A DNA stretch of 64,000 bases from positions 36,208,001 through 36,272,000 of the forward strand of contig OZ024747.1 in NCBI GenBank assembly GCA_964016885.1, given 5' to 3'. This DNA is from Eledone cirrhosa. Taxonomy: Eukaryota. The translations under genes and the position numbers were made by a program. Shown here one piece after another: positions 50,918-55,867 of the stretch (its first letter is position 1; the number at the start of each line of letters is the position of its first letter). A model generated the notes under the pieces. That model did no database searches and was not told the DNA's origin. It worked only from the letters and a program-made list of their open reading frames with translations.

Positions 50918-51532
50918 TTAGAATTGGTGCTCTGAAATAGCGATATATATATGAATGTATATATAGTGTATTTTGCAATACACTGTATGCTTAATTAAAA
51001 GCATTTCGAAGAGATTACGCTATTGTTTTAGAGTAGTGACAGTCTCACTTACTTTAAATTTTCAGCAAACAGGGGATATAAAGCTGACATAGATCTGTTT
51101 CGTACTTTTTGGTACTTATCAAAGCTAAGTACTCCACCTGTTTGGTGAAAATCATGAATGTTTGATTCTTATAGAATTCTAGTAATAATCAGGAACTGAT
51201 TAAACAGAACGATTGCCGGTCAAGCAGAAATTGAAAATTAGAATTAGTGCTCTGAAATAGCGATATATATATGAATTTCTGCTTGACCGGCAACCGCTCT
51301 GTATAACCAGTTCCTGATTATTACTAGAGTTCTATAAGAATCAACCATTCAAGATTTTCAGTAAACAGGTGGAGTACTTAGCTTTGATAAGTACCAAAAA
51401 GTATTAAACAGAGCTCTGTCAGCTTTATCTCCCCTGTTTGCTGAAAATGTAAAGTAAGTGAGACTGTCACTACTCTAAAACAATAGCGTAAGGTCTTCGA
51501 AATGCTTTCTATTAAGCATACAGTGTATTGCA
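50918..51532. mobile_element. 320-bp retrozyme-like monomer with partial direct repeat and inverted copy (arms 50974-51232 / 51274-51532)
   Basis: gaatt.gtgctctgaaatagcgatatatatatgaat at 50921 and 51241 (period 320). The arms are reverse complements. TA-rich flanks. Confidence 0.8.
51082..51126 (-). ncRNA. Type I hammerhead with U3-A8 variant core
   Basis: Minus strand: AGCU UUGAUAA GUAC-CAAAAA-GUAC GAAA CAGAUCUAUG UC AGCU, with long distal stem I over 51058-51152. Mirror 51380-51424 (+) has perfect stem III CAGAGCUCUG but has lost G12. Confidence 0.7.
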
Positions 51533-51649
51533 TAATTCCCTATATATACATATACATATATATATATATATATATATATATATATATATATATATATATA
51601 TATATATATATATATATATATATATATATATATATATATATATATATAT

Positions 51650-52094
51650 ATATTGTTATACTTTGGGAGGGTCATGTTGCCAATAAGAAACACACGCACC
51701 AGTTGCTTTCACTTCAATTTATTATATATTTATAAATTTACAAATTTATAAATTTCTGGTTGGTTGGTTGGTTCCACAACCAGATAGTTGTTTATATATA
51801 GTCATAGTTCTTTCGTCACACACTCTGTGACTTCTTCAGTGACTGGGGATTCCTTTCTTTGTTTCTGTGCCTCTCCTTTGTTCTGTCCTACGCCATTTTG
51901 TTTCTGTGTGTGTGTTGTGTGCTCAGTCTGCGCATGCGCCACATCCGTGTGTATGTGTGTGTTTATGTTCATTTATCTATTTGTTTATTTACATGTTACT
52001 GGTTACAATTAAGGACAAAATGAAAACAAACACACACATAGAACAAACAACGATTTCAGATAAAGAATCTTGCTAAACAAATTCAGAAACGAAA
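51650..52094. mobile_element. Second short derivative of the Neptune-type PLE
   Basis: Same left end and tail as 5681-9258. Inverted arm to ~52004, internally deleted forward arm, (TA)n on both sides. Confidence 0.9.
51800..51844 (-). ncRNA. Minimal type I hammerhead (PLE family)
   Basis: AGUCA CUGAAGA A GUCACA-GAGUG-UGUGAC GAAA GAAC UA UGACU. Confidence 0.8.
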
Positions 52095-52129
52095 TATATA
52101 TATATATATATATATATATATATAAATCT

Positions 52130-52521
52130 ATAATATAAGATCAAAAGATGGTTAAAGGAGTTCCATATATTTTATTATGCGCATTTCAAAAACAAACATC
52201 ATCAAGCAATAATATTTGTGTTTTCATCAGATAAAACAGGAGAACATGATATGAAGGCTAAAAAACACTTGTTGATAGTGCAGTTTTAAATCAACAAGTG
52301 TTTTTTAGCCTTCATATCATGTTCTCCTGTTTTATCTGATGAAAACACAAATATTATTGCTTGATGATGTTTGTTTTTGAAATGCGCATAATAAAATATA
52401 TGGAACTCCTTTAACCATCTTTTGATCTTATATTATGCATTCTCCAGTCCCACAAACTGTAGAGTGCTTCTTATCCGATATCTGCATTGCTTTATTGTAC
52501 TACAATAAAACTCACCTCCTA
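52130..52521. mobile_element. Perfect fold-back element (147-bp arms 52130-52276 / 52290-52436) plus ~85-nt tail, in (TA)n
   Basis: Arms read as exact reverse complements with a 13-nt spacer. The unpaired tail ends in TA repeats. Confidence 0.88.
52330..52396 (+). ncRNA. Type I hammerhead, intact core (mirror 52170-52236 on minus)
   Basis: UUUUAU CUGAUGA [AAACACAAAUAUUAUU-GCUU-GAUGAUGUUUGUUUUU] GAAA UGCGCA UA AUAAAA. Palindromic stem III, predicted cut after 52390. Confidence 0.8.
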
Positions 52522-53077
52522 AATATATATATATATATATATATAGACGTATGTATGTATGAATATATGCATATATTATATAGAGGTGTGTTTTGTGGTT
52601 GAGGTTGTGTGCGGTTCAAGGGAGTGTTATATAAAAATGAGATGATGTGAGACGAAAGTAATGAAGTGAAAAGAATAGACTTGAGGAAAGATGGGTATAG
52701 GGAAATAAACGGAAAAAAAACAAATTAAATCTAGATAAACTTGGTTCTACGAACTGTCAACCAGACCACAACGAGTGAGAGAAATTTAACACAGGACATC
52801 CCCGACTGCAGTATACCAATACGGGGAGGAATGTGGGGGGCCATATGAAATATAAATAACTGCGGAATAGAGCCAAACACATTCACATACACACGCAAGC
52901 ACACACACACACACACACACATACACACACACACACACACACATACATATATATATATATATACCATCAGTTCTTCGAGAAGAGAAAACCATACTTCGGG
53001 ACTGGGCATATCAAAAATAACAGAGGAAAACTTTTTTTCCATCATTATGGTTGATGTTTTTTTCTGTTCAAGTTCTA

Positions 53078-53136
53078 GCTGTCTGATGAAGTCATAGCTG
53101 TTGAATAATGGTTATCTTCAAAATATATATAACAGC
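53078..53136 (+). ncRNA. Decayed type I hammerhead (G12A)
   Basis: GCUGU CUGAUGA ...AUAGCUGUU-GAAU-AAUGGUUAU... cAAAA UAUAUA UA ACAGC, followed by ~145 nt and then (TA)n. Confidence 0.6.
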
Positions 53137-54831
53137 GAATATGGATAATCGAAGTTATTTTTAACTTGTTGACTTACACTGCTTGTTTTTAAATTACTCT
53201 GGGGTAAGCAGACCAACCAGCAACACTTCGTCGTGTGCTTTAGGTTGCATATTGAAGGGTTGGTAACTAACCAACACATACTAATATATATATATATATA
53301 TATAATTGTGTGTGTGTGTGTGTTGGTGTGTGTATGCGTGTTTATGTGTGTGTGTGTTGTGTGTGTGTGTATGTGTGTGTGTGTGTGGGGGGGGGGGGGT
53401 ATGTGTGTTTGTGTGTGTGTGTGCATTTGTATTTGTGTTTGTTAGCCGAAGCTCTCTTAGTTTCACGATTTATACGAAACGAAACATTATGTATCACCGT
53501 ATCGGACGTTGGTTCTTCACTAGGAACAATTAGATAACGTAGATGATAGAGATCGGCAGATTAGAAGAGAAATTTCAAGAATTAACAACTATCTAGTTCA
53601 CTCTCTTATTCTTACGATTTTGAATGTTGCATAGAGTGATGGCTAGGATAATGCTAACGAAAATGGAAGTAAAGTGATAGAAACATAGGCAAACATACAA
53701 ATCCTAATTATAGAAGAAAATGTAAATTAATGTTTTAAAAAGTGTCGTGAGAAGAGTGGTAGTGCAGCAGATATTTACTAAAGTGAATGAAATGGTATTT
53801 CGTGTAGTAGCTATGTGGGGATTGCTGCTAAAGTGCATAGGATGCGCTTAAATTACCGGGAGTTCTGGACCGAATGCTTTGCGGACATATCGTTGTCGTT
53901 TGAGGCGGTATTCTCCCCACACCTAACCTGTTTTGGGTCTTGATCACGAGGGATGACTGACATATGCCTCCCGGCGCGTTTTATCGACGGCCATTATGTT
54001 ATCTCTATCTACAATTATAAGAATAGCAGTATCTGACGAATTGAAATTACGAGAAAATGTATTATAGTACCTGATACGCTGGCTCTCTGACAACGACTTA
54101 AGCAACCAGCGAACTCACTAAATGCCAGACATGCTCATCAATTTATTTGGTTCTACTCTGAATACTTCTTTGTCAGTAACATAGATACTCCTCAGATAAA
54201 AAATATATAGTCGAATAAATTTGCTACATATATATCAGCTGTTCCTCTATATTTATTTCAAATCTATCGTCGTTCAGTTTTGACTTTATTCAGAACCTGT
54301 TGAAGGAAAAGATTTCCAATTTTGTGTGCACTAGTATCAGAATAAATGAAGCTAGGACATGAGGACTCGCGTTATTTCATCCAGTAGTTGATGATCCGAA
54401 GGTGACAACTAAAGGAAATTAATGCCAAAATTGAATAGCCATGGATTTTTATCAAGATACATCTTTGGCATCCAGAGAGAAGAAACAGCTATGCATAGCT
54501 AGAGGTTTATGCGAAACACAATGGTGCCTTGATAATAGAGACATGCATACATGTGTGTGCGTATGTATCTAGGAGTGCCTGTATATATATATATGTATAT
54601 ATATATATATATATATATATATATATATATATATATATATATATATATATATATATAAATATATATATATATATATATATATAAATATATAAATATATAT
54701 ATATATATATATATATATAAATATATATATATATATATATATATATATATATATATATATATATATATATATATATATATATATATATATATATATATAT
54801 ATGAAAGTGAGGTCAAGTATGTTATAAATAG

Positions 54832-54880
54832 TTGCTCCGAAGGATCCAAACCTCGGTTTGGAGGAAACAATTGTAAGCAA
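54832..54880 (+). ncRNA. Variant or decayed type I hammerhead
   Basis: UUGCU CCGAAGG A-UCCAAAC-CUCG-GUUUGGA-G GAAA CAAUUG UA AGCAA. Three well-paired stems, palindromic stem III, core U4C/A9G. Confidence 0.62.
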
Positions 54881-54955
54881 ATAAATGACTTGTAAATTAA
54901 CAAACACCTAATAAAGGTGGCACATACATGCTAACTGTATGAAACATTCTTTTAT

Positions 54956-55142
54956 GGTGGATTGGCAGTATCGGTAGAGGGTCGGACGCCATGCTTTGAC
55001 AAATAGATTTACGGCCCTTGCCATTCTGAGTTAAAATCCACCCGAGGTTAACTTTGCCTTTCATCCTTACGAGGTCTATAAAATAAAGTACCAGTAATGT
55101 AGTGGATAATTGCTGGCCGCGTGCCTAAAATAGAAACAATTA
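54956..55142 (+). mobile_element. SINE, full length, ending in (TA)n
   Basis: Same family as 19419-19608. Confidence 0.85.
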
Positions 55143-55146
55143 TATA

Positions 55147-55867
55147 TATATATATGTGAATATAGACATAGAATATTCGAAAATATTCTGTATGTTTATA
55201 ATAAACATTTTGAAGACCTAATCGCTATAGAATAGAATACGTCACGTATTACAATTAGATTCTCGATAAAAGCAAGGGAAGTAATCTACGCGTTTCATTC
55301 TTATTAGAAATCTTCAGGACTACATATCCAGTGCTTTTATCGAGAATGACACAGCTAGAGACTTATAGAATACTTAGCTGTGTACAGGAACTGGTTTGAA
55401 AGAGCGGTTGCCGGTCCGGCAGAAATTAGAAATTGGAATAAATGCTCTGAAATAGCGATATATATGTGAATATAGACATAGAATATTCGAAAATATTCTG
55501 TATGTTTATAATAAACATTTTGAAGACCTAATCGCTATAGAATAGAATACGTCACGTATTACAATTAGATTCTCGATAAAAGCAAGGGAAGTAATCTACG
55601 CGTTTCATTCTTATTAGAAATCTTCAGGACTATGTTTATTATAAACATACAGAATATTTTCGAATGTAGTCCTGAAGATTTCTAATAAGAATGAAACGCG
55701 TAGATTACTTCCCTTGCTTTTATCGAGAATCTAATTGTAATACGTGACGTATTCTATTCTATAGCGATTAGGTCTTCAAAATGTTTATTATAAACATACA
55801 GAATATTTTCGAATATTCTATGTCTATATTCACATATATATCGCTATTTCAGAGCATTTATTCCAAT
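55147..55867. mobile_element. 310-bp retrozyme-like tandem repeat with inverted copy (arms 55432-55632 / 55667-55867)
   Basis: tatatgtgaatatagacatag at 55151 and 55461 (period 310). Copies look identical. (TA)n at both ends. Confidence 0.88.
55281..55323 (-). ncRNA. Type I hammerhead (also 55591-55632 minus and 55666-55708 plus)
   Basis: GUAGUC CUGAAGA U-UUCU-AAUA-AGAA-U GAAA CGCG UA GAUUAC. 16-bp distal stem I auucucgauaaaagca / ugcuuuuaucgagaau (55259-55347). Confidence 0.8.

Follow-up and report, generated by a model that had tools for sequence, protein, structure and literature searches.

Two-armed arrays of young retrozymes in Eledone cirrhosa suggest double priming on one monomeric template by a Penelope-like element

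We analysed a 64,000-nt stretch of the Eledone cirrhosa genome (OZ024747.1, 36,208,001–36,272,000; hereafter the window, in whose positions all coordinates below are given), which holds members of two short, hammerhead-bearing repeat families, A and B. The two families are homologous, keep a covarying hammerhead fold, and are dispersed as two-armed insertions that carry a tail at one end and whose arrays are uniform across both arms. We consider it probable, at roughly 70%, that these insertions arose when a Penelope-like element (PLE) primed reverse transcription twice, once from each end of a break, on one monomeric RNA template. Loci fetched from the rest of the genome are denoted by L and a number.

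The A monomer is 321 bp long and the B monomer 310 bp. Once rotated into register they are identical in 213 of 327 columns (65%), with an alignment score of 161 compared with a maximum of 13 among 300 dinucleotide shuffles. A first-pass annotation of the window had described homologous units of 320 and 310 bp with shared flanks and a hammerhead at the same position in each. The homology was borne out, the quoted flanks and stems are found in both units, the hammerheads do lie in the same register, and the lengths needed adjustment only to 321 and 310 bp; the simple unit or tandem layout, however, did not survive, as both loci are two-armed and divergent. The A locus (50917–51563) consists of a minus arm and a plus arm diverging at 51274–51276. 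In the B locus (55148–55867), a 34-nt patch separates a 1.6-unit minus arm from a plus arm of ~0.66–0.8 unit; the pieces of this locus match one another at 100%, and the two hammerhead cores of its minus arm (55627 and 55317) are spaced 310 nt apart. The window copy of A is decayed: its arms are identical at 236 of 259 positions, GAAA is lost in the plus arm, and stem III is changed in the minus arm. Because its two ribozymes sit on opposite strands, this locus cannot release a monomer. The longest stop-free frame in these non-coding units is 46–59 amino acids, and the predicted circles of A and B fold ~4.8 standard deviations below 100 shuffles (z about −4.8).

Both families display the conserved core boxes, NUH cleavage site, three stems and open stem I of a type I hammerhead, with U3-A8 in A and no GAAA in the plus arm of the window A copy. 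We identified a third subfamily, A', from a diverged copy in L019. The core 3–8 pair is U-A in 34/34 A loci, C-G in 26/26 B loci and C-G in 23/27 A' loci; the A core is therefore the U3-A8 variant and not C3-G8. The stem III initially quoted for A does exist but comes from the plus arm with the mutated GAAA, while the minus arm keeps the core and has two stem III changes. We aligned 37 hand-chosen copies covering the variants of A, A' and B (from 304 hammerhead matches, plus one L104 copy). Pairing held in 94.2% of cells, and 18 of 28 pairs were altered on both sides, compared with 36–47% paired in slid controls. The two-sided changes mostly split the three subfamilies and represent few independent events; stem II also has double changes inside A. 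The stems and the core 3–8 pair covary across the three subfamilies, and the alignment of genome-wide copies, which the first-pass annotation had put forward as a check, supports its view of a non-coding mobile family under selection on hammerhead structure.

At the gathering score, no Rfam hammerhead model matched in the window. In E-value mode, Hammerhead_HH9 weakly matched A (24.6 and 23.8 bits versus a gathering score of 52; E 0.007 for the 24.6-bit match), B matched no Rfam hammerhead model even in this mode, and none was listed for A'. Rfam microRNA matches on inverted arms and TA tracts were discarded as hairpin artefacts. In cofolds, a double hammerhead through palindromic stem III is predicted to be favoured in B (−66.3 vs −60.2 kcal/mol) and in intact A (−91.5 vs −80.8 kcal/mol).

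Genome copies were located by sequence-pattern searches of the assembly, which comprises 3.0 Gb and is rich in AT microsatellites. A 19-mer common to the subfamilies has 21,203 exact matches and one B hammerhead 36-mer has 1,579; there are 2,321 candidates for A and 2,799 for A'. Family B, which is very young and abundant, forms 310/311-bp arrays with arms of up to ~27 units; sampled A loci mostly hold ~1–2 units, their arms often measuring one unit or less. Three sequencing contig runs of one sample, of a kind not on record, agree with the majority letters of the family. A and B are almost certainly non-LTR (long terminal repeat) retrozymes, a known kind of element: their units are non-coding, fall within 150–450 bp, are arranged in tandem with a hammerhead in each, and are dispersed (long arrays are shown for B). 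Non-LTR retrozymes have a target-site duplication of more than 4 bp when one is present; here the insertion ends lie in (TA)n, where a duplication is unreadable.

Each insertion comprises two arms diverging from a centre, with outer ends mostly on (TA)n. A scan of 95 loci yielded 55 two-armed pairs (L114, which contains an assembly gap, entered this count twice), and 52 of the 55 have one end with a ~26-nt tail and one untailed end (binomial p 8e-13); 97 of 110 insertion ends are on TA. Two of the three exceptions, L030 and L170, are miscalls by their flanks. In a replicate set of 22 further B loci, both ends were in view in 17, and all 17 obey the rule (L215 has extra pieces), as do 12/12 copies of the PLE family C described below. 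Thus, A and B have the inverted 5'-truncated arm and one-sided tail of a non-autonomous PLE (52/55, 17/17), features known from PLE insertions (PMC8557442, PMC3846280; for published systems we draw throughout on the available portions of the cited texts). The first-pass annotation had noted neither this divergent architecture nor the tail rule, and had also overlooked the U3-A8 core and the PLE connection. None of 40 arm 5' ends fell within 5 nt of the cleavage site and no region was avoided, although one replicate end (L208) was at the cut site by eye. The absence of such ends favours a template that was a closed circle or uncut RNA; a linear cleaved monomer was rejected as template because 5' ends do not pile up at its cut site.

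The arrays themselves record what was copied. Among 20 two-armed B loci, 16 were informative, and both arms carried the same haplotype in 13 of the 16, compared with 39 of 380 cross-locus arm pairs. In order to look within arrays, we took those with at least three full units, leaving out the mosaic L119 and dropping shorter loci. In the resulting 37 arrays (309 units, 24 haplotypes), each defining variant was present in all units, and other differences were confined to one or two units. Mosaic arrays numbered 1/38, and a variant part-way to fixation was seen in none. Variants 91C, 11A and 242A each fill one two-armed array (8, 13 and 6 units); elsewhere a genome-wide search found 2, 9 and 2 isolated single matches, and the two isolated 91C matches proved sporadic when checked. 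If a monomer is copied repeatedly, a change that arose in one unit is expected to fill a whole array for which there is no parent array. These arrays suggest that one monomeric, likely circular, RNA was copied from both ends of a break. In the mosaic locus L119/L216 (G000:C1:136719.5-136725.9 kb), both arms, when read inwards from the flank, begin with two units of one haplotype and continue with a different one; the arms share a template history, and a linear mosaic multimer fits this locus at least as well as a circle.

A candidate for the enzyme is family C, which is abundant and young: it has 21,517 candidates, and its open frames, with an asparagine-rich N-terminal region, extend to 1,239 amino acids. 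A 1,228-amino-acid single open reading frame (ORF) has reverse transcriptase (RT), a CX4CxxC linker and GIY-YIG, and the element is in partial tandem with a hammerhead repeat; by motif it is a Neptune/Nematis-type PLE. Pfam RVT_1 and GIY-YIG matches on the decayed window copy fell below cut-off. Copies of family C, which has a hammerhead of its own, lie in the window at 5682–9259, 22986–23560, 51651–52095 and ~61500, and its two putative start sites fall in the first codons of the ORF. A/B and family C share the (TA)n target and the end rule. In one insertion, L107:948-2389, an A arm of 1.7 units is joined head-to-head, through short patches derived from A, to a C arm truncated at its 5' end; no TA intervenes, and a single pair of TA flanks encloses the whole; it is the only such chimera among the loci scanned, and a deletion between neighbours could also yield it. 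The anole PLE protein, a predicted dimer, cuts and extends both target strands and starts at two adjacent sites bounding the tail (PMC11167929). PLE-driven copying of a retrozyme circle into tandem cDNA has been proposed (PMC7229834), and a 2026 preprint links retrozymes to PLE repeats by co-occurrence, calling the mechanism unresolved (10.64898/2026.07.22.740005).

In the mechanism we favour, tandem arrays would be transcribed and cleaved to monomers, B acting as a double hammerhead through its palindromic stem III, and the monomers would be ligated to ~310/320-nt circles by an RtcB-type ligase, as in axolotl and mussel retrozymes (PMC7229834). A dimer of a Neptune-like Penelope RT-endonuclease would cut both (TA)n strands, and its two RT sites would start ~26 nt apart, one where the tail ends and the other ahead of it; an insertion would then have one tailed and one untailed end because each end uses one start site. 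Both RTs would roll around the template, one displacing the other's cDNA, and the two cDNA ends would be joined head-to-head by microhomology or short patches. The strictest version, in which a Penelope RT dimer on one ribozyme-made circle writes two diverging arrays from two fixed sites 26 nt apart and leaves a germ-line record of rolling-circle copying, has in our judgement slightly better than even odds. If that version were true, it would explain the long-noted inverted arm with a one-end tail of all PLEs, and the recurrent A-to-G changes in B (position 189 on 8 haplotypes) would be A-to-I edits in an RNA duplex fixed into the genome.

The same family and helper could also have used an uncleaved linear multimeric transcript copied from parent arrays, with the ribozyme acting rarely or only in an occasional monomer bottleneck. 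We regard this as unlikely, though it deserves the most serious attention among the alternatives. It would accommodate the haplotype switch of L119, which is synchronous in both arms, the lack of a 5'-end pile-up at the cleavage site, the predicted weakness of B stem III as a monomer, and the anole PLE, which mainly uses uncleaved RNA (PMC11167929). What it handles poorly are the three variants that each fill a single two-armed array with no other array carrying them, the rarity of mosaic arrays, and the lack of the part-way variants expected from DNA-level homogenisation; moreover, arms of up to ~27 units would require very long uncut transcripts.

We give little credence to the idea that A and B are nothing more than truncated terminal repeats belonging to autonomous Penelope elements still to be found, with tandems that grew later at the DNA level. 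An inverted arm and one-sided tail are indeed the canonical PLE insertion (PMC8557442, PMC3846280), the arms of most A insertions are ~1 unit or less, and the search for other PLE families was not exhaustive. However, among 531 tail continuations, 427 lead into the next unit and 94 into TA (521 together), and the 10 that lead into unrelated sequence share no continuation, whereas the tail of family C leads into its ORF; the units also lack any long stop-free frame, and array-wide variants are common to both inverted arms. Least credible of all is that the RNA was not primed a second time and that the second arm arose when the first cDNA (or an antisense template) folded back or primed itself: self-priming has been proposed earlier (PMC3846280), fold-back would account for shared variants, and both 5' ends lie within 7 nt of each other in 5 of 20 B junctions, often at local palindromes, but the other 15 link unrelated positions, either arm can be the longer one, and fold-back alone does not yield one tailed and one untailed end.

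It is important to note the points that count against double priming on one monomeric template, the account we prefer. Expression, cleavage and circularity are deduced from DNA sequence. The B loci come almost all from one contig (C1) of a single assembly, from which source alleles may be missing. In L114 and L123 the arms differ at one site, in an arm shorter than one unit, and the simplest template for L119 is a linear mosaic multimer; with a circle, both RTs would have had to change circles during one and the same round. Two of the five variants tested, 189G (786 matches) and 296C (853 matches), are lineages and not private to an array, and 11A and 242A were chosen because they were seen in one locus only. 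The tail rule has a real exception in L005, with two untailed ends; L022, absent from the 55 called pairs, seems tailed at both ends, and the L107 chimera is tailed at both ends as well. Alignment scores of the family C terminal repeat against A, A' and B are within the shuffle range, and because the repeats do not align, the role of family C as helper is drawn from its behaviour and one chimera. A partner PLE with an A/B-like repeat was not found either: older C-like copies (L186–L188) gave no match, and in the fetched loci the longer proteins among 150 PLE relatives revealed no further PLE family. The anole PLE worked mainly on uncleaved RNA, and mutating the ribozyme did not lower insertion (PMC11167929); only 1/9 Xenopus retrozyme dimers cleaved in vitro (10.64898/2026.07.22.740005).

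The recurrent A-to-G changes are a lead only. The change at 189, found on 8/24 haplotypes, is incompatible with 10 other variants by the four-gamete test. A>G recurs at 119 and 135 too, and in the predicted fold U is the pairing partner at 6 of the 7 A>G sites. Loci L194–L203 were selected for carrying 189G. The spectrum was not significantly of the editing type (7 A>G versus 4 T>C), and A-to-I editing, template recombination or tolerance of G·U pairs may each explain the recurrence.

Copying of retrozymes through circular RNA by PLEs has been proposed and is supported by co-occurrence. Mobilisation of this kind was reportedly also proposed in 2014. The B arrays record template identity unit by unit, and thereby offer genomic evidence that can be counted, both for a monomer bottleneck and for the double priming of a single template. 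A direct test in vitro could also build on family B, which provides a defined RNA, a defined target and a candidate enzyme whose ORFs are intact.

Table 1. Positions in the window of the A and B insertions, their parts and the associated copies of family C.
Feature	Position	Strand
Family A arm 1: one 321-bp monomer and tail; tailed 3' end on (TA)n at ~50917	50917..51276	-
Type I hammerhead of A: core UUGAUAA (U3-A8) at 51122-51116, predicted to cleave after 51086; GUAC/GUAC as stem II; stem III weakened in window copy	51056..51151	-
Family A arm 2: 0.9 monomer, 3' end untailed; hammerhead core at 51384, GAAA box mutated at 51404-51405	51274..51563	+
Tail of ~26 nt, between the two putative reverse-transcription start sites	50917..50942	-
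Left (TA)n target flank of the A insertion	50883..50916	.
(TA)n tract separating the A insertion from the family C stump	51541..51653	.
Two-armed stump of Penelope-like family C, a separate insertion: left end untailed, right end tailed; hammerhead core at 51839, minus strand	51651..52095	.
Family B arm 1: 1.6 monomers, 3' end untailed; cores 55627 and 55317; predicted cuts after 55597 and 55287 would free one monomer	55148..55632	-
Type I hammerhead of B, complete: CUGAAGA core, stem II UUCU/AGAA preceded by U.U, palindromic stem III ACGCGU predicted to need a dimer	55259..55348	-
Templated 34-nt patch at the inversion centre, monomer positions 248-281	55632..55665	+
Family B arm 2: ~0.66-0.8 monomer with tail, the tailed 3' end lying on (TA)n; hammerhead core at 55672	55664..55867	+
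Candidate helper (Neptune-like Penelope family C), decayed copy with two arms: pieces of RT and GIY-YIG at 6810-8780, hammerhead core 9012	5682..9259	.

Other features of the window lie beside these insertions. A palindrome at ~52160–52440 holds a minimal hammerhead-like motif (CUGAUGA, a long stem II, GAAA and palindromic UGCGCA) and is likely the stump of another Penelope family. Another inverted-repeat element, at ~10075–10270, has a CUGAUGA...GAAA motif near 10205, and on the minus strand at 5225–5325 there is a hammerhead-like motif with a CUGACGA core and a palindromic stem III region, outside families A, B and C. A dispersed repeat ends in ...AGAAACAATT right before (TA)n at 54960–55140, 10343–10460 and other places, and B was inserted into such a TA tail. 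Directly after the B insertion, at 55890–56948, is a TA-bounded 494-bp tandem duplication (2.1 copies, 99%). Decayed reverse transcriptase frames of the long interspersed nuclear element type, of at least three kinds, occupy 24242–34849, 37017–41926 and 48446–49291.

Our literature search, which beyond the cited papers covered listings, with subscription papers and supplements outside its scope, showed no earlier description of retrozyme arrays with two arms, of variants private to an array or of a one-tail rule backed by counts. Metazoan non-LTR retrozymes are likewise 150–450 bp long, low in GC, non-coding and dispersed in tandems, with one canonical type I hammerhead per unit and a self-paired predicted circle (PMC7229834; 10.64898/2026.07.22.740005), and B joins features of the two axolotl families, in that its minimal stem III is palindromic and its stem II has a U.U at the base (PMC7229834). 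Published metazoan retrozymes form head-to-tail tandems, whereas divergent two-armed arrays, the tail rule and (TA)n targeting are features seen here (PMC7229834; 10.64898/2026.07.22.740005). Circular RNA has been shown for published retrozymes (PMC7229834), while A and B are known from DNA alone. In Xenopus, 24/57 retrozyme families are homologous to known repeats, nearly all of them PLEs (10.64898/2026.07.22.740005), whereas no matching PLE repeat was found here. U3-A8 is a natural hammerhead variant already described: in the Cercyon PLEs of Schistosoma, whose hammerhead is of the minimal PLE type, core positions 3 and 8 have changed in the same compensatory way (PMC4209133), whereas here the variant is fixed in the canonical-type hammerhead of A and the sister A' keeps C3-G8.

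The A and B insertions resemble canonical endonuclease-positive Neptune/Nematis PLE insertions in their 5'-truncated head-to-head arms, one-end tail, (TA)n bias and type I hammerhead near the 3' end, and differ from them in having no ORF and in that both arms are multi-unit arrays; the tail is ~26 nt here, compared with ~60 nt in family C and 30–40 nt in published PLEs (PMC8557442, PMC3846280, PMC11167929). MRC1 and other non-autonomous elements of Chlamys are also PLE derivatives with multicopy head-to-tail insertions but, as far as the available text describes them, they resemble their autonomous partners at the 3' end and mostly have no hammerheads, unlike A and B (PMC8557442).

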